A stretch of 64,000 bases of DNA from Bigelowiella natans CCMP2755 (Eukaryota; Protista; Cercozoa). Positions 27,724-60,627 of this stretch are shown piece by piece. How positions within the stretch are numbered: the stretch's first letter is position 1; each line of letters opens with the position of its first letter. The notes under the pieces are model-generated. The model did no database searches and was not told where the DNA came from. It saw only the letters and a list, made by a program, of their open reading frames with translations. The translations under genes and the position numbers were made by a program. The stretch covers positions 1 to 64,000 of the forward strand of contig ADNK01000413.1 of NCBI GenBank assembly GCA_000320545.1, given 5' to 3'.

Positions 27724-27833
27724 GAAGATGGCCAGGCACCCATGGCAACTTGAGAGGAAGACAGATGATGAAGAAATGAGATCCGCAGCCCGCCAAAATG
27801 TCATGTACGTTCTGCACTAGGAGCATTGATTTT

Positions 27834-34185: not shown

Positions 34186-34279
34186 TCGTCAATAAAGCTG
34201 TTACAGTAAACACAGAGATTCAAGACAAAGCTTCGGCCATTAATATATTTGGATACAATTAAACTAATTGTTCAGCAAC

Positions 34280-34990
34280 TTGTGTAGCTAGCTAGTAGCA
34301 CAGTGTACACAGCAAGAAGTATGTACAGATTATATATCGCAGCAATACATGTCCACGTATCGTTGTCATTACATTTATACTTTAAAAAAACTTTGATTTA
34401 AAGATCTCACTTTTGTTTGTTCTCACTATAAATGTCAAACATTGTGTTCATCTTGTGCGCACGCCTTGCACAGTCCATGCACTACGATACTCTAGATACT
34501 GCTACGTACATCATTGTAGCTATCTTAAATCATGTAAAATGAAGTAGAGTCTTTTTTCATACGGTCATTGTAGCACATATTTGACACATTGCTACGACTA
34601 GCTATGCCAGTCGTGGCCATTCGTGCCGTATGACACTGTGGCATCGACTCTTAGCTCATCTGACTTGTGAGACGGGTGTAGTTAATCGAAATGATTACAT
34701 TTGCATCTGTTGACTTATCTAGTTGTACGAGACGGATGTAGCGCATTGATTAAATCTTTTCAAGGGTCATCCTAATGTAGCTACATGTGCAATGCAGCGG
34801 CTGCACGCTTGTGTTGTGTCTGTTTGTTTCCATCTGATGACTTGCATGCACAGCGCTCATTAGATTGTGTTTGTTAGTTTGTGCAATTGTGTGTGTCATG
34901 CTAGCGCTTGAGGAGGCCTAGCTAGCTAGCTAGAGGCGTTGATGATCGATGATGCTGCGCGCGCGCGACGTAAATGTACTACTAGCACAT
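34280..34990. other. Partly TpA-depleted intergenic patch between the convergent patatin and CK1 3' ends
   Basis: gctagctagctag runs and TG/CA excess; carries a copy of the short dispersed repeat at 34729-34802. Confidence 0.5.
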
Positions 34991-35016
34991 ATCTACTATA
35001 TAAATAGAATATACAT

Positions 35017-40859: not shown

Positions 40860-41811
40860 AGCGTGTGTTGCGAGGGTGTGCATTAATTGTTGCCATTTGA
40901 TGTGCACGCTGTCATACAAACGTTGCATGGTGCATGGCATCAATCAGCATAGACGACAATAGCGAGAATTGTGCAATGAGCAGAAAGAGAGGTAATTATT
41001 GTGGCACTCAATGATGCTCGCTACGTGCACACGTTCAGCTACGCTAGTACGCCACGCGCACGCGCATGCACATCGATCATGGCGGCAATTCTATTTGTAT
41101 GCGCAGAACGTTAATTGCGTGCGTGCACATGCTAATGTGTACGTGGAATGCACCAACACGACCAATGATGCAATCGATGAATGCCGCGTGCGCGTTGTTG
41201 ACGCCGACAGCAGGGGCGGGCACGCTAGCTAACAAGCACCGGAGCCTTGCAAGAGCTAGACAGCATGACAGCTGCAAGAGAGACGGACACAATGATCAAT
41301 CAAATTGAATTTGTTCAATGACTGGTCATCCTCATGTAGCTGTGCAGCAATGCTAGAATGCAGCGGCTAAGCGATGATGACAGACACAGTGACATCACAC
41401 ATGCAGAACACAAGTCACATCACAAGTGATCAAGTGACATCATGCACATGGCGGAGGAGCACACATTGCATTCACATGTCCATCATTCAGCGCTGTTGAT
41501 GTCAAATCTGTTGGTCTTCGCTGTGATCGAGCGTGTGACATTTCATGCAACAATGTGTTGTGACGACCACAGCTGTGACGATGGGCAACAAGTGGGGCGG
41601 TGCTCAGTGAGCAGTCTAGCAGTGCTGCTCTGGCTAGCTAGCACTGCTGCAGATTGCTAGATTGCCTGTGCGTGGCTGTCACTTGTGGCCGCCAGCTGGA
41701 GCACTGCAGAGCGCCATGCCAGAGCGCATGCATGCTGCAGCTCGCGGACACGTGCATGCGCATGCACTAGCGCTAGCTAGGACAATCAGCCACATGGAAC
41801 GCGCGTGTGCT
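40860..41811. other. TpA-depleted decayed repeat-like DNA flanking the left TIR
   Basis: Few TA outside CTA/TAG; contains a copy of the short dispersed repeat at 41278-41368. Confidence 0.6.
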
Positions 41812-42169
41812 GCAGCAGACTGCTGCACCATGCCCCACATTTGATTTCCCATCTGCCGTCAGTGGGGGAATGACACAAAATTTTCATTTCAAAAATTCAC
41901 CCACTGACGACCCACTGCTGAACTGAATTGCTAGAATGACATGGCAAAATTGCACGAGCATGACACGTCAAGTGTTCTGCATTTGATTTCCCATCAGCAA
42001 TCAGTGGCAAAATGTGCGAAAATGCGCAACATGAAAGCTTCACCCACTGACGACCTGCTGCTGAACTGAATTGCTGTGATGACATGATGAAAATCACAGG
42101 CACATCCCATGTGTTTTGTGAAAACAATCTTTGTTGAAAATGACATGGCAAAATCCACAGCAGAGCATC
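41812..42169 (+). repeat. Left terminal inverted repeat (~358 bp, with two ~143-bp internal subrepeats)
   Basis: Reverse complement of 60271-60627 with about 26 differences by eye. catttgatttcccatc recurs at ~41838 and ~41980. Confidence 0.92.
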
Positions 42170-42209
42170 GTTGAAAACACTGCAAACTTGTTCTCACGCA
42201 AAGTGATGA

Positions 42210-42941
42210 ATGAGAACATTTGAATCAAAAAAAGGAAAACCATCAGATGAATGGCTGACTGAAAAACAATTTGAATCTTTGAAAAACAAAAGATTTTTGC
42301 ATGTGACATCATCAAACATGGACACACACAAAAGAAAACCCACTGAAGAACTTGTTGTCAAACTTGGGCAAGGTGAGGGAACTCAGCCAGCATCAAGATT
42401 GAAAGATTGCATTTCACATCATGGTTGCACTGACTCCAAAAGACCTTGGATGGGTTGCAAATTGCATTGTTTGTTCGCAACAGAAAAGAATGAAAATGTG
42501 GCAGCAACAAACTCCATGGTTCATGAATGTGAACTCAAATCAAAACAGCATGCTGAAAAAAACAACTTGTTGGTAGACAGAGGCGATGAAAGGACATTGA
42601 CAAGATCAAGTGAATTGATTGGAACATTGGATTGCAAACAATTTGAAAAACTCACAGACATTGAGTCAAAACCTGCATGCAATTTGCGAAATGAAAAGCA
42701 GAAATGCATCGTTGAAATGTCAGACCATGCAAACAAAGCAAAGAAAAATGACCATCAAAAACCTGCTACCTTCAAAGTGAAACACAGTGATGGCAGTGCA
42801 GAAGGAACAATTGGAAATGTGTCACCTAATGATGTCAAATCAAAGAATTTTGACAAGTCATTTAGAGAACATTGTGAAAAATCAAATGACAAAGACAACA
42901 TCAAATTAGAAGATGAACATGTGAAACACCTTGGCATTTGA
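42210..42941 (+). pseudogene. Hypermutated viral ORF, possible T5orf172/GIY-YIG-like nuclease domain
   Basis: FL(H=Y)V...VVKLGQG...PASRLKD(C=Y)...RGDE pattern; zero Tyr in 243 aa. Confidence 0.4.
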
Positions 42942-43133
42942 TCATCTACTGAAACATCATGCACAGCCCATTTTGCATCTTCATCAAAATCAAATGGTTT
43001 TTTCATGATTTGCAATTTGACAAACAAATCACCATTTTCTGTCATCAACAACTTGTCAATTTTTTGCAATTTGTTCATCCTTTCTTCTAATTTTTTTGAT
43101 CGTTTCTCTAATTCCATTGTTTTCAACAAACAT

Positions 43134-43337
43134 TCAATGAGATTTGTTGTCATTGATGACAACAACAAAAATCACTTGCTCACCACACTTTTCAGTTGCC
43201 ATCTCGTGTGCTTCTTTGAAAGTTTCACCTGACACAAGGTTCATTCTCATGGAAGCCATGTGTTTTTTGCCATGATGCTTGCCATGAGCTGCTAATGAAT
43301 CTTTCTGTCTTTTGGTTGATTTTTTTGATGCCATCAC
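43134..43337 (-). pseudogene. Small basic His-rich viral hypothetical protein
   Basis: TKRQKDSLAAHGKHHGKKHM...GETFKEAH resembles a small protein seen in aquatic viruses (recall, not searched). Confidence 0.4.
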
Positions 43338-43352
43338 ATCACTGTGGATTTT

Positions 43353-44084
43353 TCATTTTGACAAAGGAACATCGTGTTTGTCAACCATCTTTTTGTCAAT
43401 GTTGCGAGATGGTCCACCAAACAGAACAGAACACAGACGGGCTCTGCTCCAAGACTCGGCACTTTGATTTGGACGACTTCCTCCAGAACAGTGAGCTCCT
43501 TTGCCTTTGTTCACAATTTCTCTTGAAGATTTCAAAGGAACATCCAAAACTTCAGTCACATTGGATGAGGATGCATCACCTTTGAAACACTTGTCTGCTT
43601 TTTGTGTCCATTTGGATTTCTTGCTTTTGAAACTTCTCAACTTTGGTCTGTTTCTGCCATGAAAAATGCTCTCTGTTTGTTTTTCCCCATCTTTTTTGCT
43701 CAACGATTTGGGCACATGCTTCTCATTGATGCTCATCTCACATTTTTTAACAGCATCTTGAACTGCTTTGCTGTTCATCCATTCACATCCGGCATCTGAA
43801 CCCCACGAAAGCCAAGCCACAGCACCTCTTCTCTCATTTCTTTGTGATTGGTCCATCGGTTTGCCATCATTTTTCCATCTGTCGCATCCTGGTTTAGATG
43901 TGCATTTGTGACGAGCGAACCAAGCATTCACAACAATGACATCTTCAACATCCATGGCATCGTCATGTGCTAATTGTTCAGCTCTTTTCATTCCTGTTTC
44001 AATCGTGCCTTTCCAATTCAGCTTCTTTGATTTCAATGCTATTCGGGCTTTCTTCCTCACTTTCATTGGCATTTTCAATTTCAT
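43353..44084 (-). pseudogene. Hypermutated two-domain viral ORF: phage-like RA.QLA/AW..WG.D.G domain followed by a DUF5824-like giant-virus domain
   Basis: (H=Y)VPKSLSKKD, RPKLRSFKSKKS and KGKGA(HC=YY)SGGSRPNQSAESWSRARL; zero Tyr. Confidence 0.6.
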
Positions 44085-44653
44085 TGTTCAATTTGAGAAG
44101 ATTTTTTGCATGCTTTTCACAAAGAATGTGTTTGTCATGACATTTTTTGATCACAAATCCATCACAGAAGGGACAACACATTTTGAGAATGTGTTTGTCA
44201 CAATGTTTTTTGGTCACAAATCCATCACAGAAGGGACAATGTGTTTCATCGTGTTTCGTTTCATCTTCATGACAATCTCTCGCACAAGCATTGATGCAAT
44301 CTCCATCATCTGTTCCATGTTGTTTCATGTCTCTACCTGGAACATTTTCATTGACACATTTTCTTTTCATTTTTTCTTCAGCTGTTAGTTCTGCTTCTTT
44401 CTTTCTTTTCTGATGAACAGATATTTTTTTGGCATCCTTTTCCAATGACTTCAAAAGGTGAACCTTCAACATTTGATTCATTGCAAGTTCTGCCACCAAT
44501 CTTGACTAATCGGTTGGTGTTGATGTTGCATCCATGACCATTTTTCATCTCTTTGTTTTCAATTTTAGCAAAAAGCTTTTGCAAGTTCTTTTTTTGAAGA
44601 GAACTAAACTTTCTAAATTTTTTCAAAAAACTTTTCATTGTGTCATCAGACAC
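43999..44653 (-). pseudogene. Hypermutated, frameshifted viral ORF with two tandem CPFC..H zinc-finger-like repeats
   Basis: CPFCDGFV(T/I)KK..DKHI occurs twice; 63-bp-period direct repeat at 44123-44243. Confidence 0.5.
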
Positions 44654-45778
44654 ATCATCATCACAGATTAGATTTCTTCAAGTGAGAATTGAACGAATGA
44701 AAATTTGAAAAAAAACCACAGTTTTTTTGAGAGTTTTGAAACGACCACAAAATGGTTCAAAAAGAAAAAATCTGCAGCATCACAATGAGCGAAAATGTTG
44801 TTGGCGGAGCAACTCTAAATCCCAAAGGATTGAACAAAATGTTCAAATCCAAAACTTCAGGATGTGTGAAAGAATGCCACAAAAAGAACTCTCAAAAATG
44901 GCTACGAAAGGCAGAATGCAAAGCCTGCAATTGCATGATTGGATTAGCATCACTGTCTCGTCACAAAAGAACTGAAAAAAACACATGCTCAATGGTGATC
45001 CTAATCCATCCGAAGAGCAGAAAAAATTTGTAGATGATCATGAATGTGTCAAGTTCAGGAAATGCAAATTGGTCAAATTGGAAGAAAAATCAGATTTTGT
45101 CATGAAGAAATCAGAAGAGTTAGGAAACAAAACACAATGAATGCAATTTTGTGATCATCATGATTGCCATCATGATCACAAAATGACATCATGAACAAGT
45201 TGAACATTGACAGTTTTTGTTTCATGACCATTGATGTCATCATTGTGATTGTCAATGTCCTCAAATCCATCATGCCAAGATGGTCCACCACATTGTTCTT
45301 TTTCTTCAACATCTGGTTTAGCAAGACCAAGTTCAATCAATGTGTCTCCATTTTGTCCCTTGTGATTGTCAATGTTCTTCACAAATGCTTCTACAGTTTC
45401 ATCATCAACCTTTGGTTTTGTTGGAACTTTTTCATCCTTGTCATCATTGCTCATCACAACATGACTGTGCATTTCACAATGATTTCAAACGAACATTGAT
45501 CAAATGATGCTGTCATGCCATCAACTTTTTTAGGAACCTTTGGAATTTCTTTTTTCTTCTTTTCCTCCTCTTTCATTTTTGGTTTACGAACATCCTCAAA
45601 ATGTTTCTTGTTGTGTTCACTTGTCTTCTCTTTTTTTTCTTGACATCTCTTCTTTTGGTGTGCTGTCATTTTTTCTCTGTTTGGTTTGTGACATGCTTTT
45701 TGTTTTTCCTCATCAGACATTTGTCAAAACAGTTTGGATTTTTGCATTTGAAAAAAATGATCTCAACTCAATTGACAT

Positions 45779-47008
45779 GTGAGCAATTTGAGAGAAACAG
45801 AAAAAAGGTTCACACGACAGTGGAACAATTGTTTTCCATTGATGGAAGAAGATGGAAAAGGAAATGAAGTTCCAAGTGAAGTCAATGTTGATCATCTTCT
45901 TTGGATGATTTTCAATGAAGACTCCATTGGAGGTGACAGAAAACTTGTGGTGAGAAAAACTGACACTGCGGTGATTGGTCCAATGACAGAAACAAGAACA
46001 CATTTGTCGAACATGGAAAAGAATTCAATCACATGTGCCAATGACAACGGATTTGACATCAGTGATCCAACAGAAGATTCAAGAACACCACCAAGAGCAC
46101 AAACACCGCCAAAAATGACAAGAACACCAGCACCACCACCATCTAGAAATGGGTCAAGATCATCAACACCATCGCCAAGAGGACCAGCACCAAGAGGACC
46201 AGCACCAGGAGGACTAGCACCAGCACCAGCACCAGCACCAGCACCAGCACCAGCACCAGAAAACAGACAACAACAGATGGCACAAGAAGCAAAACTACCA
46301 GCATTAGCAAGATCATCTGGTCGTGATGTTCCAACACAAGCAACACCATCACAAAGATTTGACCAACAACCAGGTTTCAGTCCAACCCCAGTTGTTCCTG
46401 CAACGGCACCTGCTGGATTTGAATCAACACCAGATGACACAGGTGAGAAAAAATTGACAGATTCATCTTTGAAAGAAATGAAAGAACATGATGATTTTCA
46501 GAGACCGCTACCTGATGTTTCAGAAAGACAAAATGCAATCTGTCAGACCAAGATGAGGCAAGGATTGATCCAAGAAGCAACTCATCCATTCGGAGGTAAA
46601 CGTGATGTGACCAATGAATCACAAATCAATTGCAATGCTGATCATGAAAACCCATTCATCAAATCTCAAGCAAGATTGAAGGTGAAAGAAATGGATGACA
46701 CGAGCATCACACACAAACCTCAATTGCAAGAGGCCATTGATGATGCCAAACCATCTGCTAAATTGCCAGCAAAGATGGCCAATGTGAAAGCACTAAAAGT
46801 TGAAGTTCCAGTTGAACCTCCGTTCAAAGCAAGAGGTTTTGATCCAAAGGAATTGCGACCTGCATTTGAAATCAATTGCACTCACGGCATGGTGCCTCAT
46901 CACATGTCTCAAGCATGCAAAAAGAAGAAAGATGAAGTAGCAGATGTGCATGCTGCTCACATCAAATCAAAACAAATGAAAGATGCTTCTGATTTGTTTT
47001 TTCAATGA
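45779..47008 (+). pseudogene. Hypermutated viral ORF with Pro/Ala (GCACCA)n low-complexity linker, unknown function
   Basis: 409-aa ORF with zero Tyr and an APAPAPAP repeat at ~46215-46260. Confidence 0.5.
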
Positions 47009-47033
47009 AAATGACTCAAAGATGTGAACACAC

Positions 47034-47639
47034 ATGAACACAATGAAACATGTGCCAGATCATGCCAAAGGAAAAATTTGCAAACTGCACATGTCAGGAA
47101 ATGAAGATTCAATTTGTCATGGTTCTGCCATTCAAAGTTCAAGTGTGAGATCATCTGGTCATAGAAAAAATTTGAAATGTTGGAAAAAGGGTACAGGTTC
47201 ATTCATGACATCATTTGAATCATTGGAAAATGAAAATGCAATCACAACCCTTGTTGAAAATTTCCCTTGTGATTCTGAACATGAATTAGAAGCCAGAGAA
47301 CGATTTTGCATGGAAAACAACAAATGCATCAATGAAAATGCACCCACAAGAACTGCAAAAGAATGGAGAGAAACAAACAAAGAACGATCAAAACAATGCA
47401 GACAAGATGACAAAGAACGAATGGCAAAACCAAACAAAAAATGTCATGAAGATGACAAAGAATTGTCAAAGGAAAAAAGAAAAGAACACTTTGCGAATCA
47501 CAGAAAAAAGAACAAAGAAAAATTTGAAGAAAAAATCAAATGTCCCTTCTGTGGTTGTTCTGTTGGAAAATCCAATTTGAAAAGACATCAAAGAACCAAA
47601 AAATGTTCAAAAGCACAAGAAGAATTCAAACAAAAATGA
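47034..47639 (+). pseudogene. GIY-YIG endonuclease (NCLDV/PLV type) with C-terminal zinc finger, hypermutated
   Basis: GKI(C=Y)KL...I(CH=YY)GS...R..GH, LVENFPCDS..EL.ARERF(C=Y) and CPFCGCSVGKSNLKRHQRTKKC. Confidence 0.8.
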
Positions 47640-47665
47640 ATGTTTGAAATGATTGTCGTTTCATT

Positions 47666-48451
47666 GTGATTGTCATCATCCATTGCAATCACAATGTGAC
47701 CAATTCTGAAAAGGGCAAATGCAAAAAATTAGACATGAAACCAACAATGACAACCAAAAAAAAACAGATCCACAACAATTGCAACTTGACACCTTCGTTT
47801 CCAAACAGATGCTCATTCACAGCTCCAACAGGAAGTGGAAAATCAGTGGTGATGGCAAATTTGTCAACTCGTAAAAGACATTCAAGAAACTTCTTTGATG
47901 TTGTTTTGTTTCACTCTCCAAACGTTCACTTTGAAGACGAACGTGCAGAAACAAAGGCAAAAAATGAAAAAGCAGAAATGAAATTTGAAGAAAAGTTCAA
48001 AGAGAAAGAGTTTGGAGCCATGGTTCATGAAGTGATGCGAGAACAAAAAGAACTAAAAGACAAAAAGAAACACATGAAAAAAACATTGACAATCATTGAT
48101 GATTTCGCTTCAGATGAAAAAGTGATGAAAAGTGAAACATTGAAAGATTTGTTCTTTGCTGGTGGAAAATGTGGTGCATGTGTTTGGATCACCAGTCAGT
48201 GTTGCAAAATTGTTTCTCCTGATGTTCGCACAAATGCCGAACATTTGATTGTTTTTAGCAGACAACCTTCAACTGAATTGAAAAAGATGGCTGAAGAAAT
48301 GTCAACAGGCAAATGCACTGAGAAAAAAATTGTGGAAACACTTGATGAAATGTCTTCTGTGGATCATTCATTTCCACATTGCAATCGCAAGCAACCAATG
48401 AATGAAAGGTGCATGATCAATTTTCAAAGTTTCATGAACATCCAAACATGA
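47666..48451 (+). pseudogene. A32/FtsK-HerA-type viral genome-packaging ATPase, hypermutated
   Basis: Walker A APTGSGKS; Walker B TIIDD; LFFAGGK...WITSQ..KIVSPDVRTN motif region; zero Tyr in 261 aa. Confidence 0.85.
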
Positions 48452-48707
48452 TCAATGTGGATGAACTTTTGCCAGAATCACATTCAAAAAAATCAGGAAC
48501 AAATCATCATCATTTGACAGTCGTCCAAAAAAAAACAGCAAATCCTTTTTCACATTCAAAAAAATCAGCTGTCATGGTCCCAGCTGTCAAACCTGCTGGT
48601 TTTTTTGCGAGAGAATTTGTGAGAAAAGAAGTGCCTGTGAGCATCAAACGAACATTTGAAAGGTGTCAAATGTCAATTAATTGTCATCTAAACGTTGACA
48701 ATGACAC

Positions 48708-49271
48708 ATGGGAAATGACAATTCTTCACCACCAAAACCAAAACCAATCCACATTCCAAAGCCACATTTTCCAAAACCAAAACCAATGCATGTTCCAAGA
48801 ATTCCCACAGAAAAAGCAACTAAGCCTGTGAACAAAGGAACAAAAAAAGGAGCAAATCATCTTGAAGACAAACTGACACATCCAGTTGCTGCTGCAAATG
48901 AAGCTGAAGGAGCATTGAGTGAATTGGATTCTGTGTCTCACGGCAGTCTTGGTGTTGTGCATCAGGGATCTCAAGTTGTGTTTCCACAATTTGGATTGGC
49001 CGTCACATTGGCCACTGTAGCAGATGAAATGGCTCACAATGATGGTGAGTCATCAAAAAAAACATCAAAAAACATCTCATCAAATCAGGCTACAGGAGGT
49101 GTTTGTGGTGATTGTCAAAGTGTCAGAACCATTGAAAAATCAGAGCTTGTGACTGAAATGGAAAACAAATTCAATGCAGATTCACACGACTCACCAGATG
49201 TTGATGGAGCAATTCCAGTTTCTGTGGAAGGCAAAATTTCTGTTGATGATGCGACCAGAAAACTCAGATGA
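48708..49271 (+). pseudogene. Hypermutated viral ORF, unknown function (MGN start, PK repeats)
   Basis: 187-aa ORF preceded by TCTA at -21; zero Tyr. Confidence 0.5.
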
Positions 49272-49683
49272 ATCACTTTTTCTCATCTTCTTTGATTTCA
49301 GGACTTGGCAGAAATGTTCCAAGTGTCAGAATGACAACGTTTGAAAAAGCATTTCTTTCTGCTACATTTTTTGCTGTTGCAACTTGAAGCACACTGAATG
49401 TTGAAACACTGAACATTGCACCAGATTTCAGGAAAAACTCTGAAGCCCTTTTGTCAGAAGTTGAACAACAAGACTGGTGAGCATCAATGTGTTTTTCATC
49501 CTCTGATTCTTTTCTGTGTGGCATCTCTTCCATCATTCTGTCTTTGCATTCTTCAGAATCATTCATGTCTGCAACTTTTTGTTGTTTTTCATCTGCTTTG
49601 TGTTCGATGGATTGTGGAACAATCATTGCAAACAGTCACAAACAAAATGCCACAATGATTTTTTTTCTGTTCTTGTGATGACA

Positions 49684-50578
49684 ATGGGATCATTTGATGA
49701 GATGAAAGATGGATTCAAAAAGGCTGTTAATGATGTGCAAAAATCATCAGGGCATGCAACAAAGCAAATCAAAAAAGACTTCACAAAAGCAGGAGATGCT
49801 GTCAAAGATGTGTCTGTCATGGCAGGTGATGAAATCAAAAAAGGAGCCCATGAAGTTGGAGATCAACTGAAAAAACAAGAAGTCCAACAGGCACTCGCAG
49901 GGACTGGAATTGCTTTAGCTAATGTTGCTACTGGAGGGGCATTTGCTCCAGAATTAATGGCAGGTGGATTAGCAATTCAAGGTGCCATTGAGTCAGCACA
50001 TTCAAAATCTTTACCTCATGACACTGTGCTGCAGGCAGGAACCGCATGTGCCACTGGTGAATTAGATTTTAACAAAAGAGGACCAGGTGTTGGTTCATTT
50101 AGCGAAGGTATTTCTAATTTGAGAGAAGAAGGTGTGAAACGATTTGATGGTGTTGAAGATGAATTATCAGATGAAGCTATGAAAAGACATGATGATGTAA
50201 AAGGCAAAGCATCAGCAAGATTAGGATTTGATCCAACACAAATGCAATCTACAGATGAAGCTATGGATTCATTAAAAGCACAAATTGACAAAAATAGAAA
50301 TATTAGAGCAACAGCTAATGGATTTAAGAAGTGGAAAAGCATTAGAAAATTTAACAAACAAAGCAAAAAGTGAATTAAAAAAAGAAGTAAGTAGTCAAGG
50401 CAATAAAATACTAAATGATGTTTTAGGTAAAGTGTCTCAAAAGAAAAGCAAAGTGAAAAAAGCCATGAAAAAAGTTAAGAAGAAGATGAAATCTTCTAAA
50501 GGCAAAATGGCTGATGTCATTAAAAAGGTGAAACAAAATCAACAGAGATACAGAATGTCAAGTGGCATTGTGAATTAA
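49684..50578 (+). pseudogene. Viral ORF with Gly/Ala hydrophobic segment and basic C-terminus, probably frameshifted near 50290-50370
   Basis: MGSFDEMKDGFKK...ALAGTGIALANVATGGAF; the overlapping ORF 50285-50578 continues with K-rich sequence. Confidence 0.45.
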
Positions 50579-50646
50579 AAAAAAAACACATCATGAAAAA
50601 ATTACATTCGTTTTGATACAATTTTTTTCATCTACACATTGTTAAC

Positions 50647-52311
50647 ATGGATGCAATTAGTGAAACTACCGATGTTAGTAGATTTCCAGAAATCGACTAC
50701 AGTTTACCCCCTATGGATAAAATTTTCATTGATTCAGTCTCTCATTTTAGAGAAGAGATGAAAAATAGTAACAATGCTAAAAAAGCGAATACCAAAATGA
50801 GATTTTTTGTTCCAGCTCAACAAAGAGCAGTAGACCCATCTGAATTACATTTTCAATTAAATGTTGCTGCCAGAACAGCTGGAGATGCTGATTTACCAGC
50901 GGTTGACCAATTAAGATTAAGACTTGCTGAAGGTGGAGTTCATTCTCTCTTTAGAGAGATGATCATTAGAGATGGTAGAGGTAACATCATTGAAAAAATT
51001 AACAACTATGACCTTGTTACTAAAATTTTACAAGATACTTTGTTGACTAAAGAAGTTAAAAATAATTTGTTAAATGTGGAAGGTGTTCATGATGACCAAG
51101 GATTGTTCAACACAGTTCATAGCAAATTTGATATTACTGGTAACACCTTAGAATTAAAAGCACCTGTGGCTCAGGTCGTAGCTGATACTCTTCCAGCAGG
51201 TGCGGCTGATTTTCCCGCAGCCAATGCTGCTCCTGTTGCTGCTGTGACCACTCCCGCTTCACCATCAAGAGTACTTGGTGTAGGAACTCAATTCTTAACT
51301 GAACTAAGACCAGGTTCTGTTGTTAAATTCAATGGAAACAGTTACACAGTTGCCCATGTTGTATCTGACACAGAATTTGTATCTGCTACTAACATTGCTG
51401 CTGATGTTGCTGCTGCTAACATTGTTGCTGGTAGAGATTTTGTTGAAGGATTACTTGAAACAGAAAGTCGTTACAAAAAATTCCATCACGATGGACTTTT
51501 TACAGCAGATGGAGCTGTTCATTGCTTTCAGCCATGCTGCTCTGGGTTTTCATCTCAAAACAAATACCTTCATCTTGATCATTGTGGTGGGTTAGAATTT
51601 GAATTTACTTTAGATAGCAATGCCATGATTTTCGATGATGCTAATGCAGCAGGTAATGCCAATATTTTCATTAAACAAGGATATGTTCATCACACTGCTC
51701 TTGAATTTTCACCAGTTGTTGAAGCTGCTCTTGCTAAAGCATATGTGAGAGGTTTATCTATGAGTTTCCCTGTGTACCATGTAGTTAGTGGAACACAAAA
51801 TGCTTCTACCTCTGTTTCTCAGGAATATCAAGAAAGTTTAGCAATTCTTGAAATGGTTAAAATTGTTAGTAGACCAACTGGGTTTGATGCAAATGCTGGA
51901 GCATCATTTTTCTTTGAAGATCTAACCAGTGCTAAAAGAATTTACTGGGAGATCAACAAACAAAGATTTACTGAGTGTGGCAATGATGACATTTTACCTC
52001 AAGTTGTTTTTGTGAACAACAGAATCGGTAAAAATCTATTAGGAGATTACAAACATGCTACAATTTCTTATGGAGAATTCAAAGAAGCAGGTAAATCTGC
52101 TTTAATTTTCAATGCGCAAAACTACAAAGAAGGTAATTACACAGGAGTTAACACCAACCGAGCAACTATGAGACTTAAAATTGAAGGAGGAGATGGTGTT
52201 GGTTCTTTACAACCTGGTATTGCTAATCAAGGTAGACAAATCGATGTGTTAATGATGCACGAGCAATACATTATGTTAAAAGATGGAGAAAGTGTGACAG
52301 TTCGTAGCTAA
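50647..52311 (+). CDS. Major capsid protein (PLV double jelly-roll type) with internal insertion
   Basis: MRFFVP...VDPSELHFQLNV and GGVHSLFREMIIRDGRGNIIEKINNYDLV match the N-terminal PLV MCP pattern; 554 aa; lies directly upstream of the penton-like gene. Confidence 0.78.
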   Translation: MDAISETTDVSRFPEIDYSLPPMDKIFIDSVSHFREEMKNSNNAKKANTKMRFFVPAQQRAVDPSELHFQLNVAARTAGDADLPAVDQLRLRLAEGGVHSLFREMIIRDGRGNIIEKINNYDLVTKILQDTLLTKEVKNNLLNVEGVHDDQGLFNTVHSKFDITGNTLELKAPVAQVVADTLPAGAADFPAANAAPVAAVTTPASPSRVLGVGTQFLTELRPGSVVKFNGNSYTVAHVVSDTEFVSATNIAADVAAANIVAGRDFVEGLLETESRYKKFHHDGLFTADGAVHCFQPCCSGFSSQNKYLHLDHCGGLEFEFTLDSNAMIFDDANAAGNANIFIKQGYVHHTALEFSPVVEAALAKAYVRGLSMSFPVYHVVSGTQNASTSVSQEYQESLAILEMVKIVSRPTGFDANAGASFFFEDLTSAKRIYWEINKQRFTECGNDDILPQVVFVNNRIGKNLLGDYKHATISYGEFKEAGKSALIFNAQNYKEGNYTGVNTNRATMRLKIEGGDGVGSLQPGIANQGRQIDVLMMHEQYIMLKDGESVTVRS

Positions 52312-52428
52312 TTTCATTTTTCTATCAATCATTCCAATCCTTTGGGATTTGGAGTTGCTTCGCCAACATTTGTTGTTAAATTCCACCAAAATTTATATCA
52401 TGAAAATTTATTTCTAATATAAATTAAT

Positions 52429-53145
52429 ATGAAACAACACAAAATTTATTTTAATAGCAAAGATAGAATTACTGGAACAACCAATAATTTAAATTATCAA
52501 TTAAATAGTGTAATTGATAATGTATCTTCTATTTCTATTACAAGAGCAAGATTTCCAATTACTTGTTACAATGTGTCAGCTAAAAATAACATTTTAGAAA
52601 TTGAGAATAGTTCTGGAAACAAAACAAGTATGGAATTAACAAAACAAAATTATGGTGCTACTGAATTAGCAACAGAATTACAAACTAAACTTTCAACTAA
52701 TGCCTCAACAGTAGGAACTTTTACTCCTGTGCACAATGCTAAAACAGGAAAATTTAGCACAGGTTGTAGTAATAGTTTCAAAATAATTAAAAACGAATGC
52801 TCTAAATTTTTAGGTTATAATGACACTACACCTCTTTCTACATTGCATGTAGCAGATAATATGAGTAATCTATCACCAAAACCTGTTTACATTCAAACTG
52901 ATTTACAACTGGATACAGAATTAGCAGGTCAATTGTCAAGTGTTGTGCATGAAGTCTCTGGCGATGTGTCTTTTGGTAGTATCTCATATGATAATGAGAA
53001 ACCAAGTGAAAGGATTGAATTAATGAAAAAAAAGAATGTAAGCAACTTAAAATTTACACTTGTAGATGGTAATGGAGATGAAATAGAAAATAATGGTACA
53101 GATCATTCTATGATGGTATCTTTGTTTTGTCAGACTAAGGAATAA
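52429..53145 (+). CDS. Minor capsid (penton-like) protein
   Basis: IYFNSKDRITGT..L...IDNVSSISI..ARFP...YNV...NN, NY...ELA.ELQ and LKFTLVDGNG..IENNG.D.S match PLV/virophage penton patterns. Confidence 0.75.
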   Translation: MKQHKIYFNSKDRITGTTNNLNYQLNSVIDNVSSISITRARFPITCYNVSAKNNILEIENSSGNKTSMELTKQNYGATELATELQTKLSTNASTVGTFTPVHNAKTGKFSTGCSNSFKIIKNECSKFLGYNDTTPLSTLHVADNMSNLSPKPVYIQTDLQLDTELAGQLSSVVHEVSGDVSFGSISYDNEKPSERIELMKKKNVSNLKFTLVDGNGDEIENNGTDHSMMVSLFCQTKE

Positions 53146-53175
53146 GAAAAAAATATCTAATCATTATTAATAAAA

Positions 53176-54738
53176 ATGAGTGTTAGTATTACAGGTGAAA
53201 ACATCCCTAACCCTAATGTATCTGGTGGAACAAACAATGATAACAATTCTTCAGCAGGAGGCATAGTTGGGATTACAAGCAATTCGAATGACATTAATTT
53301 TGATGAAGGAGTTTCTGTGAATGGCATAAAATTTCAAAACACAGGAAACCAAAACGGACTTTTTATGGGTGTTGATTTGTCTGGTAATTCGTCTATGGAA
53401 ATGGTCTCTCCAACAACCTACATTGATTTTGTACATCAATTAGGTTCTGATTATACGAATCGTGTTCTGTCAAAAAATGACGGTATTCACTTCACAGGGG
53501 ATTTACACATGGGCATTATTAGACCTAATTATGTATCTTCAAGTACAATAACATCTACGAATGGAACTTTTAATGCTATTAATTTAGACGGTGTCCCTTT
53601 GAATCCAAGAAATTGTTTAGTTCACGGGATTACATCTGACATTGTAAGTGGAAACATGAAATTTACTATGAATTCTAATTTTCAAGAAAAATTAACAACA
53701 TTAGGCGATTATGATCTGTCAAACAAAATAACAAATGATGCTACAAATGGTTTGATTGTTAATGCTAATAATGTTAATGATGCAAGTGTTTTATCAACCA
53801 AAGTATCAAAATTTTCTTCATCTGTATCAGGAAAAGAACCAAAAATATTAAGTATTGACAATGATTTACAATTAGCTAATCATTCAGGTACACCTCAAAT
53901 GCGATTCAAAGATAACAGTGGCAATGTTCAAATTTCATGTAATGAATTAGAGTTAACAGATAATGTAGGGGAGGTAAAATTAAAGATCTTAGAAAAAATA
54001 AATAATGTAGAAACAAAAACAACAACAACAGAAAACAAACTTAATCCAATTACTTCATCTAACAACGAACATCAATTTTCAAGTTCCATTTTTGTAAATG
54101 GTTTGAGAAGCACAACACAACCTCATATCGATGGTATTCATTTAGGAAAAGATGTTCATAATGGTAGTAGCATTGAATTCGTTAGTCCAACATGTTACAT
54201 TGATTTCGTTCATAACAATTCAGGGACAGATTATGCGAATCGTATTTTATCCAATAATGATGGAATTCACATCACAGGGGATTTGCATGTTTTCAATACA
54301 AAAATTGCTGGAGATGTTACATTTCAAGGTTCATTGTTATCGAACACATTGACAGATTTAACAAATGGATTAAATGCAATTGAAGCATTAGCTATGAGCA
54401 ATAGCAACAATGTTCAAAATGGATTTAGCAATGTAAATGTCCCTATTGTAAGAGTCATTAATAATTCATCTACTGTTGTTTTCTTTGAAAGTGGTAATCA
54501 GCCACCTTTTTACAATCCTCGTGTAGAAAATGGTAAATCTACCGTTTTAGAACATGCTTCAAATGTTGTGTCATTAAATGTTCGTTCATCATCTCCATCA
54601 TGTAATTCATTTAATCTCACAGCAGACAAAGCAGTTAGCATAAATTCTGGTTCTGATCCTAATATGCCAACTGGGGCACAACATAGAATCGAATTGAATG
54701 GTCTGAATTTTGTAACCTTTACAATTTTCAATCCATAA
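53176..54738 (+). CDS. Asn/Ser/Gly-rich putative virion fibre protein with a duplicated ~50-aa module
   Basis: SSMEMVSPTTYIDFVH...DYTNRVLSKNDGIHFTGDLH is repeated as SSIEFVSPTCYIDFVH...DYANRILSNNDGIHITGDLH. Confidence 0.6.
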   Translation: MSVSITGENIPNPNVSGGTNNDNNSSAGGIVGITSNSNDINFDEGVSVNGIKFQNTGNQNGLFMGVDLSGNSSMEMVSPTTYIDFVHQLGSDYTNRVLSKNDGIHFTGDLHMGIIRPNYVSSSTITSTNGTFNAINLDGVPLNPRNCLVHGITSDIVSGNMKFTMNSNFQEKLTTLGDYDLSNKITNDATNGLIVNANNVNDASVLSTKVSKFSSSVSGKEPKILSIDNDLQLANHSGTPQMRFKDNSGNVQISCNELELTDNVGEVKLKILEKINNVETKTTTTENKLNPITSSNNEHQFSSSIFVNGLRSTTQPHIDGIHLGKDVHNGSSIEFVSPTCYIDFVHNNSGTDYANRILSNNDGIHITGDLHVFNTKIAGDVTFQGSLLSNTLTDLTNGLNAIEALAMSNSNNVQNGFSNVNVPIVRVINNSSTVVFFESGNQPPFYNPRVENGKSTVLEHASNVVSLNVRSSSPSCNSFNLTADKAVSINSGSDPNMPTGAQHRIELNGLNFVTFTIFNP

Positions 54739-54782
54739 TTCGTTTAGAATGAAAAAAAAATACATAGTCATATTGTAATCAT

Positions 54783-55163
54783 GTGGATAATGTTAGTAAT
54801 GTTAGAGAAACTTTAAAAGGTTATAGAGTTACACAATTGAAAGAATTGTGTCGTGAAGTAGGAACATCTCAATGTGCCAGAAACAAAAAAACTTTAATGG
54901 ATAGATTGACACCTATAGTTCTAAAAAGTGCTGGATATGAAGTCGTTTCTATTGAAAAAGAAGAAGAGGTAAAAAAACCAGCTAAAAAAATCAAAAGAGT
55001 TCCAGTTAAAAATAGTGTTAAAAAGAAAGAAGAGGAAAAAGTAGAGGAAGAAAAAATTAGTCTTGAATCAAAAGAAGATAGTAATGATGAAAAAGTAAGC
55101 ATAGAAATAGAAGAAGATGGTAATGATGAAAGTTCAGTAACAGAATCAGATGTAGAAAATTAA
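54783..55163 (+). CDS. Small SAP-like motif protein with acidic tail
   Basis: YRVTQLKELCREVG...NKKTLMDRL resembles SAP/HeH DNA-binding motifs. Confidence 0.45.
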   Translation: MDNVSNVRETLKGYRVTQLKELCREVGTSQCARNKKTLMDRLTPIVLKSAGYEVVSIEKEEEVKKPAKKIKRVPVKNSVKKKEEEKVEEEKISLESKEDSNDEKVSIEIEEDGNDESSVTESDVEN

Positions 55164-55355
55164 CTCTGTTCATGTAATGGGAGGAACAATAATTGTTTTA
55201 TTAACTTTAGGTGCATGTGTGATGATTGGACACATATTTGGTAGAGTGTCGGCATCAATTACTGATTTAGACCCTACTAACGATTATTTGATTGTGAATT
55301 AAAAAATTATTTTTTTGAAATTTTGTTTATAAAAATTATCTAAATCTTTATAACT

Positions 55356-55964
55356 ATGAGTTCTTCTACCGCACATTTCCGTAATTCAGTTTTAATTGAT
55401 GGATTACTTACCGGTCCTACCATTGTTAGAATAGACACCGAAAAAACTGCTGTTCTCAGCAGTCTTAATCAACAAATTTCTGACTTTCAAACAGCAGAAA
55501 CAAACAATGCTCAAGCAAGAGCAGATTTGCAAAATCAAATTGATGATGCTAATGCTTCTATGACTCAGGCTATGGGTGATTTAACCCAACTTGTTAATGA
55601 CAACAAAGCAGACATTGAAGGTAAATTAGCAACAGAAACTAATGAAAGACTTTCATTAGCAAGTGAAGTAAGCAACAGAAATGCATTTGTAGATGGTGAA
55701 ATTACCAGACTTGACCAACAACATGCTGATGATGATGCTAGACTTGCAGCTGTTGAAGCAACACAAGCTACTTTTAATTCAGATGTGGAATCTAAAATTC
55801 AAGAGAGAATTGATGCTCACAATGCTGATCTTGATAATACCCTTCCTCGTTTAGCAAAATTAGAAGAGTGTTTAGAAACAGATGAATCTGATCCTGCTAA
55901 TCCAGTCGTAAGAATTAAAGGAGGTGTTAAATTTGAAGTAAGTGGTGATTTCGTCCAAGGTTAG
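55356..55964 (+). CDS. Coiled-coil putative virion fibre protein
   Basis: Heptad-like Q/D/A-rich helix; C-terminus VRIKGGVKFEVSGDFVQG; TCTA at -17. Confidence 0.55.
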   Translation: MSSSTAHFRNSVLIDGLLTGPTIVRIDTEKTAVLSSLNQQISDFQTAETNNAQARADLQNQIDDANASMTQAMGDLTQLVNDNKADIEGKLATETNERLSLASEVSNRNAFVDGEITRLDQQHADDDARLAAVEATQATFNSDVESKIQERIDAHNADLDNTLPRLAKLEECLETDESDPANPVVRIKGGVKFEVSGDFVQG

Positions 55965-56011
55965 ATTGCAAATGTGATTTAAACAACATATAAAAAATCT
56001 AACAATTAATA

Positions 56012-56258
56012 ATGATGTCTAATATTAAAAGGTGGTGGTGCTTTTTTCAAAGAAACACCTGCAATAGCAAACAATGTAGTAGGTCAAACAATAGATACTA
56101 TTAATCAACAATTAAACGATAATAATACACAAAACACAGAAAATAAATTACAACTTGATTTTTCAAAAGAAGTTTTTATAATAGACAAAGAAAACAAAAC
56201 TATTACGATAAATCCTGAATGTAAACTCATTGTGCCTAATGATTTAATTCAAGGATAG
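56012..56258 (+). pseudogene. Short paralog of the preceding ORF, frameshifted after the start (not in the ORF track)
   Basis: The frame reads KGGGAFFKETP...TITINPECKLIVPNDLIQG*, ending like ...SGDFVQG*. The ATG is out of frame across an A-run. Confidence 0.45.
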
Positions 56259-56297
56259 TTCGTTTAAAAATAGTATAGTTTTTTGTAGTCATAAGTA

Positions 56298-56490
56298 ATG
56301 ACTATAAGAAAAGTGTATTTTTATGGATTAACATGTTTAAATACAAGAGAAACATATATAGGTTCTACTACTATGGATCCAAAATTAAGATTACAAATGC
56401 ATGTCGCTAATTTTAGAGCACATGAAAAAGGTTTTGGTAATTTTTGCTCTTCGTATCAAATTTTAAAAAGAGATAATTATATGTTTAAAG
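56298..56490 (+). pseudogene. N-terminal half of a GIY-YIG endonuclease, truncated
   Basis: VYFYGL...TYIGSTT...RLQMH...CSSYQIL, followed by an abrupt switch to helicase sequence. Confidence 0.7.
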
Positions 56491-57744
56491 TTAAACAACG
56501 AATGTAAATACATAAGAAAATTTGATATTTCACCACATGATGTTATATGCTTTGATGAGGTTTATATATATTCACTACATCAACTATCAAAAATTAAGTT
56601 ATTTATGGATAAGCATGTTGATAAAAAATTTATTGCTACTGGTGATTTAGCTCAATTGGATCCCATTGAAAACGAATATCTGTTTAACAACATCAAAGAC
56701 CTTGATGTTAGAACAACTGAAGCTATGAATGATATGTTCCCTAATCAAATCACTCTTAAAATCTGTAAGAGAGTAAAAACAGACGAGGAAAGAAATACTC
56801 TTGCACGATTAAAACAAGAAATATTTGATGTAAAAACTAAACCATTTGATGTGCTAAAAAAATATTTTAAAGTTGTTGAAAGTATGGATAAAGTAAAGAC
56901 TCTTAACAATATTACCTTCTACAACTTTAGATCCCGTTCAGTAGGTAAGTATATCCACGGTCTACAATAGAAACCGAGAAAAAAAGTTTATGTAGATGGT
57001 ATTTGCTACTATGCTGGTATGGAGATTGTGTGTAAAAAATATAATAAGAAACCAAAACTATATGTGAACTATGCTTATGAAATTGTTAAAGTAAGTAAAA
57101 AAGAATTTGTAATACAGGATGTATGTGATATGGAAGAAATAAGAATTCCTATAGAATTAATTAGTAAGCATTTTAGATTATCATATGCCTCTACCTGTCA
57201 TAGTTTCCAAGGATTATCAGTAGATGGCCCTATCACCGTATTCGATACTAACACCTGTAGAATTAATCGCAAGTGGCTCTGGACTGCTATAACTCGTTCA
57301 ACTGACCTATCACAGATACAAATATATCAGCACAGCGATAAAGAATGCTACAGATTAAAAGAAAGTATGATTTCTCAAAAACTACGAATGAAAGTATCTT
57401 CATATGAATCTCAGGACAAAAGAGCTGGTAGAACTTGGAAAGATAAAGAACATATTGATGAGGAATGGATAAAAAGAACTGTTAATAATCATCCACAATG
57501 TCCTGTGTGTAGATGTGGATTTACTGCTGATAATGTTTCTGTGGATAGAATTGATAATGCTCAACCTCATCTGTGGAATAATTGTAGATTGACTTGTGTG
57601 GAATGTAATCTTAGTAGAAATAATCAACAGACTTACCCAGCATTTGGTGAGTACACCCCTCAGGATGTTGAGTTTGAAGATGGCTTTGAGGATCAATGGG
57701 TGAAACCTGGGTACGAAAACACCATCACTGGGCTGGAGCTTTGA
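56491..57744 (+). pseudogene. C-terminal fragment of an SF1 helicase plus HNH-like domain (PLV replication protein), with in-frame stop at 56968-56970
   Basis: VICFDEVY (Walker B), ATGDLAQLDPI, YASTCHSFQG, WTAITRS, then CPVC...VDRIDNAQPH..NNCRLTCVECN. Walker A is absent. Confidence 0.78.
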
Positions 57745-57991: not shown

Positions 57992-60183
57992 ATGAAGCGT
58001 AGTGGATCTTTTGACGAGAAAAGGAAGGTAGATGAAAGAATCCCTAGCAGGAGAAGTTCGAAAGCACAGGTACTTATCCTACGAGGCTTGCGTTCGGGAG
58101 CTTAAGCTTTGATGTGTTCTCAGCGTTCTGAGGTATGGGGAAATCAGATGGACTCTATTAGCAAACAAATCGAGAAATTGAGGGATGAAAGAAAAGCTTT
58201 GAGCATCGCTTGGGCAACGGAGAAGAATAAGGAGAAAGAAGAGGCGCTCAAGGGTGCTATTGACAAATTGGACGAGGAAATTCAGGCGAAGGAGGCAGAA
58301 CTGAAGGAAACGATAAAGAAATTCGAGGAGGCAACCCAAGGTTATGAATTCTGTTAACATCTGAGGAAACAATCGGTGTGCTGAGATATTTTTGCGTGTG
58401 TGTTCAGCCATGGAAATTGAGGAAAGCGGCAGGGGGGGTGATGCCCAATGTCTCTGTGCAAATAATCCATTGTTCTAATTTTATTGTGATTTGATTTCAG
58501 GGGAGAAACGCAAAAGCATATCGGATTACGAACGAGGAAGCGAAACAAAAGGTGACTAGACTCATCCTCTCTAAGTATCTGTTTGATAGTCCCGCTTTAC
58601 GTGGATACACAGGCAAACGATTCAAGATTGACACGGATGCCGAAGAATTTTTCCAAGCTTTGAGAGACACTCCGTTCACAAAAGGGACTGCAATGCAGCT
58701 GGTGCGCATAACGAAGAACATCCTCGTACCTGGGCATCGTGCTAGTTGGATTCGGGGGTCCAGGCACCCTGTTACTCTTTTCTACCGCAAGGCATTTTCA
58801 GAAGCAGTACGCAGATTTCGAGAATGTTATCAACTTCGCCGTGAGGGAAAGTCGAGCATTGATTGCTGTATACTCTCTGGGCAAAGTGGTATAGCCAAGA
58901 GTGTGGCCTTTTTGCTAACGTACATCAAGGTGGCGCTTAAAAATGACGAGAAGGTTGCGTTCTATTCCGTGCCAGAGGGTATCCTTTACTGCATCTACGT
59001 CGAGAACGGTACAGTCAAGTGTTCAACATCTGTAGTTACCCCCTTAACATTCCACAGTGAAGAATGGAAAAGCTTTGACTCTACTTCGACACACCTTGTC
59101 GTCGATCCCGAGAACGGATTCGGGCACCTAAATGTCAACATCACAAAAGCCTTTGTGGTAGTGGCAAGCTCGCCCAATAAGGAGTGGAAGCAATTCGAGA
59201 AACTCCTTAAGGCCGGAACGAAGAAGCGGGATCTCACCTTGTATGCGGATGTCATCCAAGAAGATGAATTCAACGATATTTCTGCGGGAAACAATGAGAG
59301 TGGCGGGGCGGATGGAAACTGTACTGTCAAGGGCTTAAAAAGCCGATCCGAGATAGCCGGGGGGATGTTGCGGCACATTGTGGACGAGCAAAAGTTCAAG
59401 AAGTTTCAAGACTCCCAAGACCACATGTTGCGAATGTTTCAGGGCAAGATTGGCGAAAACGTGGAGATGATACAACCTAGGGATGTCGCTTTACCAAGTT
59501 CCGTGTTCTGCATCCGCCCCATTCTTAAAGACGGTTCGCACACTAGTTCGGATTTTGTCCTGGATTTCCTGAGCCCTTATGTAGAATCCAGAGTGGTAGG
59601 GGCGCTTGCCGAGGAACAGTCTAAGCAGAGTGAAAGTATGTCTGGTTTAGAGGCAGAAAGAAGGTGGTTTCACCTCATAAAGAATGGGGGAAATTTTGAA
59701 GGCCGACATGTCGGCTCACATTTGCCAGAAGAATTGAAAGGCAAGACTATCACTGTCTCATTTAGTCGACACAAACGAGTGATTCACCATCGCGAAAATA
59801 GTAAGGAAGAAAAGAATAAGTGCTTGGAGGAAATCCGCGAATTGAAGGATTCGAGCACGCTGGTCATTTGCCCTCCGAACTACACAAACATAGATGGTGC
59901 TTCAAGTGCTGAGGTGCTGCATCAGATGGCTAAAGGAAATGTTCACGACTTTAAAGTCAAACACAAAGACGAGGTTCTTGTGGATACGAAAGTTGTCACG
60001 ATTTACTACTACACTTTGGAGAAGCATTATCATACATTCCGTGTGAATTTCGTTTACAAAGACGTGTCAAAATCTGACCAGGAAGCGTGGAAGAAAACCT
60101 GGCACAAGCACTTGAGGTTCGTAGTCGTAAAACTCGATCCGGTAAGATTTTGGGATAAATTAAAGAAAGCACTTGGAAAATGA
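57992..60183 (+). CDS. Crinkler/RHS-like effector gene (N-terminal coiled coil, P-loop NTPase, REase-like C-terminus), spliced, inside the TIRs
   Basis: ILSGQSGIAKSVAFLLTY, LVVDP, VVVASSP, GGMLRH and PPNYTNIDG...HQM...H motifs; GT-AG intron 58070-58123 joins in phase. The splice path into 58501 is not fully resolved. Confidence 0.6.
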
Positions 60184-60270: not shown

Positions 60271-60627
60271 GATGCTCTGCTGTGGAATTTGCTATGTCAT
60301 TTTTAACAAAGATTGTTTTCACAAAACACATGGGATGTGCCCGTGATTTTCATCATGTCATTCTAGCAATTCAGTTCAGTAGTAGGTCGTCAGTAGGCAA
60401 ATTTTCATGTTGCGCATTTTCGCAATTTTTGCTACTGATTGCTGATGGGAAATCAAATGTGGGTCACTTGACATGTCATGCTCGTGCAATTTTGCCATGT
60501 CATTCTAGCAATTCAGTTCAGCAGTAGGTCGTCAGTAGGTGAATTTTTGAAATGAAAATTTTGTGTCATTCCCCCACTGACGGCAGATGGGAAATCAAAT
60601 GTGGGGCATGGTGTAGTAGTCTGCTGC
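60271..60627 (-). repeat. Right terminal inverted repeat
   Basis: Reverse complement of 41812-42169; retains more TpA than the left copy. Confidence 0.92.

Follow-up and report, generated by a model that had tools for sequence, protein, structure and literature searches.

The process closest to the one treated here has been described in Bigelowiella natans itself. According to the accessible part of a report on mutation-accumulation lines, the mutation rate in two integrated viral regions is ~6e-7 per site per generation, and nearly all changes turn TpA into TpG or CpA (~230 de novo TpA mutations, with 124 TA-poor clusters counted); deamination of adenine by an ADAT2-like deaminase is proposed by its authors, and repeat-induced point mutation (RIP) of fungi is named there (Mettrop et al., 2026, bioRxiv 10.64898/2026.01.13.699255). 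Here we report on a stretch of 64,000 nt from B. natans CCMP2755 (contig ADNK01000413.1, positions 1 to 64,000; hereafter the window, all coordinates on the forward strand), which contains a ~19-kb element of low GC content at 41812-60627, bounded by terminal inverted repeats (TIRs) whose arms are 92-95% complementary. Like the regions described in the preprint, it is integrated virus-like DNA with the change of TpA to CpA/TpG on both strands and a multi-kb TA-poor, CA/TG-rich cluster, and two sister copies of its likely capsid gene are named as Bigna1 gene models. The preprint stops, as far as its text is accessible, at the dinucleotide, and its accessible main text makes no mention of a flanking context or of a trinucleotide, TAG or CTAG preference, whereas new in the window are the saturated end state, the abrupt edge and a hierarchy of edit rates over four bases. 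No paper on a flanking preference for TpA hypermutation was found in the literature searched; the process is already known, and the flank effect appears to be unreported there.

Other systems resemble the pattern in part. RIP is likewise regional, acts on both strands of repeats and invaders with dinucleotide-specific transitions and spills into the flanks, but it runs in the opposite direction, making TpA from CpA, and is linked with a homologue of cytosine methyltransferases and with the sexual cycle. Viral hypermutation by APOBEC is strand-biased, whereas the pattern in the window is strand-balanced. ADAR and TadA/ADAT2-3 share with it the A-to-G outcome and the preferred 5' U/T, but their natural substrates are RNA. 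Moreover, in the accessible parts of the sources, ADAR tolerates 5' A and ADAR2 favours the 3' G that is protective here (PMC11120146), and APOBEC3/AID and DddA show context-dependent deamination of DNA, in the case of DddA of duplex DNA, but act on cytosine (PMC10960570).

Loss of TpA in the left part of the element

Only 53 TA remain in the 7531 nt of 42170-49700 (observed/expected, o/e, 0.07), while CA and TG together reach an o/e of 1.77, the opposite of a RIP-type change, in which C-to-T at CpA raises TpA. The density is ~7 TA per kb from the left TIR (41812..42169, + strand; ~358 nt with two 142-nt sub-repeats, saturated, its sole remaining TA a CTAG) to a sharp edge at ~49900 (change point 49900-49910), and is then ~74 and ~114 per kb. 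The saturated zone thus spans 42170..49900, and the partly to lightly edited part at 49901..57744 (~60-110 TA per kb, CTAG and GTAC avoided) serves as the baseline. The shifts in the zone amount to +44 CA, +25 TG and -83 TA per kb, and six long open reading frames (ORFs; 188-410 aa) in it are without tyrosine. Editing stops abruptly within one ORF (49507-50373); the left TIR is saturated and the right TIR (60271..60627, - strand) partly edited. The edge could be a chromatin boundary, the limit of spread from the left flank, or the product of recombination between copies. The 8-kb TA-poor cluster sits in the TIR-bounded, capsid-encoding element, and the flanks and one non-viral patch are affected as well.

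The loss of TA is present in real DNA and is derived. Contigs from four public DNA runs are identical to 46921-47995 (0 differences over 1075 nt), which rules out an artefact of long-read basecalling, and other copies have TA at positions where the window has CA or TG. Of 22 differences to other copies in 42170-49700, seen in the best 40 of 2056 rows, 15 are CA/TG against TA, four are CA against TG and three are other. In addition, of the 78 and 87 amino-acid differences that separate the capsid from its two sisters, 49 and 60 are explained by single TA edits, and both strands are edited (21 CA against 15 TG where a site can show either product). The change is therefore T:A to C:G at TpA, on both strands and with regional saturation. 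No public RNA is listed for the zone, and one raw RNA run, of which 6% was read, gave 0 reads on 381 nt.

Flanking bases and the rate of editing

CTA or TAG accounts for 46 of the 53 TA surviving in 42170-49700, as the first-pass annotation had proposed by eye, and the seven others (TTAA 2, GTAA 2, TTAC 1, GTAC 1, ATAT 1) include all four exceptions named there. The C/G-flanked survivors are CTAA (15), TTAG (14), CTAC (9), GTAG (4), CTAG (2), CTAT (1) and ATAG (1); CTAT and CTAG had also been listed as common survivors, which one and two sites do not bear out. In the baseline at 52001-57500, CTA/TAG makes up only 182 of 497 TA (Fisher p=1e-12), and in a control within the zone, which takes TA, CA and TG sites together, 46 of the 480 with a C/G flank read TA, compared with 7 of the 1132 without one (p=2e-18). 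The right TIR, with CTA/TAG at 11 of its 12 TA, is exactly as annotated. The survivors are balanced between the strands (25 CTAH, 19 DTAG; p=0.45).

Since this baseline consists of other genes and is itself lightly edited, absolute survival is overestimated, and the contrast between zone and baseline is probably conservative. Survival is 0.29 (0.286) for CTAA/TTAG and 0.19 for CTAC/GTAG, but 0.025 for CTAT/ATAG, 0.028 for GTAA/TTAC, 0.02 each for TTAA and ATAT, and 0 for ATAA/TTAT and ATAC/GTAT; GTAC (1 against 4, zone against baseline) and CTAG (2 against 1) are too few to judge. With 95% intervals, CTAA/TTAG and CTAC/GTAG together survive at 0.25 (0.17-0.36), CTAT/ATAG at 0.025 (0.003-0.095) and TA without a C/G flank at 0.016 (0.006-0.034). 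Thus CTAT/ATAG survive like unflanked sites (2/58 against 7/315, zone to baseline; p=0.64) and far below CTAA/TTAG and CTAC/GTAG (42/123; p=9e-5), of which ~75% were nevertheless lost, compared with ~97% of CTAT/ATAG. Duplex melting was considered as the cause and rejected, as GTAA/TTAC have the same G:C content as CTAA/TTAG and survive ten times less; because GTAA/TTAC are unprotected, the flank effect is a base-specific readout. Over the wider context from -4 to +4, the most that stands out is a slight surplus of C at -4 (18/44 against 38/181), one of several positions examined.

A symmetric 4-bp site recognised on double-stranded DNA had been concluded from the survivors. Any process acting on both strands, however, leaves survivors that are reverse-complement symmetric, and the direction of the edits was therefore examined. 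In the TIR pair, 10 of the 12 TA of the right arm correspond to CA or TG in the left arm, nine of them at C/G-flanked sites and in both directions; of the other two, one CTAG is kept and one differs by three letters. Together with the best 40 of 2056 and the best 40 of 64 rows, the TIR pair gives direct edits at C/G-flanked sites, with a 5' C on the strand of the changed A in at least 12 and a 3' G in at least 11; TA sites lacking a listed difference in the best 40 of 64 rows were not scored as survivors. Editing has thus reached C/G-flanked sites in the left TIR as well as in sister copies, in at least 23 direct events, and no site rule exempts them.

The survivors were then fitted jointly with the outcomes per site and copy that two sister proteins (779 and 542 residues, no tyrosine) provide; of these 266 outcomes, 249 were used and 17 that no TA edit can explain were dropped. 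By the Akaike information criterion (AIC) the uniform model reaches 681, the 5'-only and 3'-only models 640 each, a two-level D-TA-H model (no C before, no G after) 623, palindromic weights 617, free weights 615 and free classes 614. Depletion over NTAN is therefore not uniform, which was the check that the annotation had asked for (uniform against two-level, likelihood-ratio test 60.7, p=7e-15). Its D-TA-H preference holds in that both flanks act, the one-flank models being rejected against the two-flank model (p=6e-7 and 9e-7), but it is too simple: the two-level model, with a factor of 0.40 per flank, is beaten by models with hot A/T flanks (p=0.007), and CTAT/ATAG lack protection. As for the palindromic protection, the balance of the survivors between strands stands, while exactly palindromic and free weights are nearly tied and not separated (test statistic 8.0, 3 degrees of freedom, p=0.046). 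A one-sided trinucleotide motif fits the survivors alone (AIC 285 against 282-298) and fails once direction is added.

Early edits in the lightly edited capsid gene, an independent test, show the same preferences: 2 of 38 protected-class sites are edited against 24 of 98 others (p=0.013), and 15 of 36 sites with a 5' A against 11 of 100 (p=0.0003). A 5' C or a 3' G on the edited strand each lowers the rate ~2.5-fold, which is a graded bias and not a recognition rule; a 5' A raises the rate, and a 3' T probably does so too. ATA/TAT are the hottest contexts and CTAT/ATAG are without protection. Because of these flank-dependent rates, CTAA/TTAG and CTAC/GTAG outlast saturation and CTAT/ATAG do not.

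CTAG needs separate treatment, since the C that an edit leaves always precedes A and the G always follows T, so that no edit can create it. CTAG had been called a sink. Inside the element this does not hold: the zone contains two CTAG, and the lightly edited part has 1 where 16.8 are expected. A sink is seen only in older host patches, where it needs back-mutation or slippage. That CTAG became rare in the element through fast editing was rejected, since no matching excess of CCAG/CTGG exists (20 against 16.1); the virus avoided CTAG before editing, as it did GTAC (4 against 14.9). Other palindromic 4-mers were likewise avoided in 52001-57500 before editing (ACGT 0 against 6.2, TGCA 15 against 28, GATC 9 against 18), possibly through restriction avoidance; the accessible part of one report describes methyltransferases in chlorarachniophyte giant viruses, one with a TGCA motif (10.1101/2025.11.19.688996). 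CTAG, the site that the host mutator spares most, is the one lacking in the virus.

In the host DNA, the flanks are rich in CTAG as annotated (11 of 27 TA at 40900-41811, 12 of 35 at 60628-61500). The left flank at 41000..41811 is TA-poor and CA/TG-rich, with CTAG at 11 of 22 TA and a ~100-nt repeat in common with 27922-28016, and the 16 TA of the right flank at 60628..61100 are all CTA/TAG, 12 of them CTAG and partly tandem. A separate TA-poor patch at 27820..29100 shows the same hierarchy (23 of 26 TA are CTA/TAG, 10 CTAG). Two CTAG-rich intergenic patches of normal TA density, at 2050..2800 (18 CTAG of 59 TA) and 34000..35000 (13 of 82), are likely older scars. CTAG takes 33 of 48 C-[TA/CA/TG/CG]-G sites in the three TA-poor host patches, 31 of 36 in the two normal-TA patches and 16 of 94 in other host DNA (TA-poor against other, p=2e-9), and in the separate patches the share of TA follows the rank order of the zone (0.69 for CTAG, then 0.14, 0.05 and 0.009). 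There are seven tandem CTAG runs. The patches fit a ratchet in which back-mutation and slippage feed the least-removed context; the neutral CTAG share is 0.53 at an AT bias of 2.65 (the value of the preprint), with which the TA-poor patches agree (26 of 41, p=0.21). A short dispersed repeat at 27922-28016, 34765-34782 and 41273-41376 is common to three CTAG-rich patches (74% identity over 107 nt between two of them), and the mutator likely targets small non-viral repeats as well.

Candidate agents

We lean towards a DNA adenine deaminase of the host that silent chromatin would guide to its targets. A host enzyme would alter the A of TpA on either strand and read the base before T and the base after A; it is predicted to deaminate adenine in DNA, with inosine read as G at replication. 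Heterochromatin would direct it, spreading patchily from the left end to the flank, and in old host patches CTAG would build up slowly as C-to-T back-mutation and slippage feed a context that is hardly removed. We infer from the pattern that the enzyme is the host's own, that A is deaminated and not T damaged, and that heterochromatin does the targeting; a published account, in its accessible part, describes a single H3K9me3/H3K27me3 state over transposable elements and repressed genes in B. natans. The substrate may be duplex or single-stranded DNA, as symmetric survivors alone are no proof of a double-stranded site.

Several points weigh against this reading. A-to-G and T-to-C leave the same letters, and the enzyme, the inosine and the base of the pair that is hit are predictions. 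The baseline is a different, lightly edited gene set, and seven edits on the side of the window occur in the best 40 of 64 rows. The direction data alone hardly separate the models (AIC 324-342), so that the verdict needs the survivors combined with them; the sister copies share ancestry, contexts were taken from the bases of the window, and the fit carries a nuisance term of ~0.3 for silent differences. The excess of tetramer products is noisy and opposite in the strength of 5' C and 3' G (TTGG +50, CTGA +20). With a single baseline site, the immunity of CTAG is not measurable inside the element, and the two normal-TA patches (27 of 32 with tandem units collapsed) exceed the neutral share (p=0.0003) and are not fully explained.

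The main rival, which we regard as rather unlikely, is a TET/JBP-type dioxygenase that oxidises the T of TpA to 5-hydroxymethyluracil (5hmU) and then 5-formyluracil in silenced repeats, with later mispairing with G; the flank effects would be its preferences on the T strand. It would give the same T:A to C:G outcome, although 5hmU pairs with A and 5-formyluracil is weakly miscoding. In the accessible parts of the sources, 5hmU of a dinoflagellate shows its strongest enrichment on Maverick/Polinton repeats and a TA/TC preference was given in older work, but no 5hmU motif was found in Breviolum (PMC11071213), and phage T-dioxygenases are context-specific on double-stranded DNA (PMC13229309). Neither 5hmU nor a JBP-like gene was shown in a chlorarachniophyte in this analysis. 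It is less probable still that a mutator without any flank preference of its own meets a protective mark or bound protein, for example a methylated C of CTA on either strand, that shields CTA/TAG. Protection does track the C 5' of TA on one or the other strand, and CTAG with two such C is the most protected in the patches, but CTAT/ATAG have the same C without protection, the boost by 5' A requires a second cause, and no methylation data for the host were found in the literature searched. An error-prone polymerase similar to pol eta, putting G opposite T during repair synthesis of silenced DNA, seems very improbable. Pol eta gives A-to-G at WA, TA being hotter than AA, on both strands; AA, however, shows no depletion across the zone (o/e 0.95-1.37 per kb bin; 145 against 162 per kb while TA drops from 90 to 7), and the accessible text of the preprint reports all such mutations on TpA (bioRxiv 10.64898/2026.01.13.699255).

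We give just as little credence to ADAR-like RNA editing, or to ADAT2/3, the housekeeping tRNA editor and the candidate of the preprint, acting on DNA with a tRNA-like preference. Both prefer U/T 5' of A. Natural ADAT2/3 targets have the form Y-U-A-(G/C/A) and are not known to read A-U-A or U-A-U, so four of the spared tetramers are tRNA-like and the hottest are not; the argument is weak, as ADAT2/3 read shape more than sequence. An ADAT2 homologue with residues of the DNA-editing type is reported in B. natans in the accessible text of the preprint (bioRxiv 10.64898/2026.01.13.699255). ADAR accepts 5' A besides U (PMC11120146, accessible part), but AA is untouched here and 3' G lowers the rate, and a DNA element offers no known RNA-to-DNA step; the poor fit of ADAR-type editing noted at first pass was thus borne out. 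Least probable of all is that CTA/TAG were regenerated after saturation through C-to-T deamination in CAG/CTG (CWG methylation), or that N6-methyladenine (6mA) of the ApT type, a mark reported for eukaryotes, was the mutagenic precursor. CCAG/CTGG is indeed drained where CTAG is rich (14 against 33 and 5 against 31; other host DNA 62 against 16), but CTGH and DCAG are not drained in the patches (92 against 47 CCAH and DTGG), and the early edits already avoid protected contexts. A comparison with a 6mA motif had been suggested; ATA/TAT, the hottest contexts, do overlap ApT, but such a precursor was not supported, since the A within ApT is not preferred to the A that follows (5 of 10 against 13 of 23 early edits; 3 against 8 where both outcomes are visible) and the ApT-free TTAA and GTAA/TTAC saturate too.

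A more specific form of the adenine-deaminase reading is tentative, and we hold it to be doubtful: a chlorarachniophyte defence editor other than ADAT2/3 may deaminate adenine in duplex DNA and read a four-base TpA site by base identity, with ATA/TAT hot and CTAG nearly immune, repeated bouts leaving CTAG-rich intergenic scars that record old invasions. If true, it would be the adenine counterpart of DddA and the mirror image of RIP.

Element, host and meaning

The window holds a dynein heavy chain gene with introns, a host-type gene that marks the DNA as eukaryotic, and genes that we take to be Skp1-like and casein kinase genes; the closest named relative of the latter is from Lotharella oceanica (84%). 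A chlorarachniophyte host is well supported, and the two Bigna1 sister capsids make B. natans or a close relative likely. A coding repeat with a 15-nt period (KKEAE-type) at 26600-27720, the end of a 1242-aa ORF, was not counted as a scar, since TA is low there because of codon content. The element has the TIRs and, within 15-40 kb, the size expected of a Polinton-like or virophage-like element, and from its gene content it would belong to one of these, with no finer subgroup. Besides size, TIRs and low GC, it shares with the Polinton-like viruses and virophage-like elements of protists, as far as the accessible literature describes them, a likely capsid, a P-loop ATPase, an SF1 helicase and several copies. 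It differs from them in that no match to protein-primed PolB or an rve integrase, the marks of a Polinton/Maverick proper, was found among 17 of the 33 listed ORFs with Pfam, 11 with NCBIfam and seven with PHROGs, although heavy editing could mask one, and no cysteine protease was found among the element ORFs scanned. CpG o/e is low across 42170-57500 (0.28, 0.21, 0.48; host DNA 0.86, nested segment 0.97), and as it is low in both halves of the element it probably predates the TA editing. In contigs of other copies, positions 44445 and 56492 are linked on opposite strands, which suggests an internal inversion or a different gene order in the window copy.

The likely major capsid protein (50647..52311, + strand) has 554 aa and 15 tyrosines, whereas its two sister copies (83-84% identity) have none and four relatives at 64-67% have 23-27. 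Its Atlas features are at 0.96-0.97 to viral clusters, with Capsid_NCLDV in 6 of 30 matches; no sequence match was found in Pfam, PHROG or PDB. Its structure prediction (predicted local distance difference test 35) is unusable for judging a possible double jelly-roll fold. No capsid-related locus was found in the viral and metagenome contigs searched, and a search with a 520-aa ORF gave distant matches only, which were set aside. The ORF at 47648..48451 (+ strand) encodes a P-loop ATPase, likely of the genome-packaging type (PHROG terminase family, E=5e-9; weak Pfam matches under the cut-off), for which a packaging role may be assumed. At 3' of the capsid gene lies a 238-aa ORF (52429..53145, + strand) with a weak DUF5901 match under the cut-off; in the sister copy P0122 the stop codon is lost and the capsid is fused to the corresponding ORF. 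Loss of TA deletes TAA and TAG stops, and saturated copies thus look like long, tyrosine-free, fused gene models, as in P0122. The C-terminal part of an SF1 helicase followed by an endonuclease VII/HNH-like domain (56467..57744, + strand) is split by a stop at ~56968. Furthermore, the host-like segment 57750-60270 inside the TIRs is near-identical to multi-copy DNA (a 912-nt contig, 6 differences, depth 177 against ~28 for a unique piece). Its 562-aa ORF (58495..60183, + strand) is multi-copy, has host-like composition (GC 46%, CpG o/e 0.97) and is likely a captured gene or nested insert; it has no family match, and presumably resembles a CRN-type NTPase-nuclease protein.

The DNA adenine editors used in base editing had to be evolved from tRNA editors, and a natural one, if real, would be relevant to that field. 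The 2026 report of the process has a dinucleotide signature only and no enzyme, and the four-base hierarchy is a fingerprint for testing candidates: any of them, be it ADAT2/3, another deaminase or a thymine dioxygenase, must edit CTAA/TTAG and CTAC/GTAG slowly and ATA/TAT fast, leave CTAT/ATAG unprotected and act in both directions at sites with one flank. Tyrosine-free proteins offer a possible quick screen for TpA hypermutation in other genomes. The hierarchy also predicts a genome-wide scar of CTAG-rich, TA-poor patches, by which past hypermutation could be dated and other protists screened.

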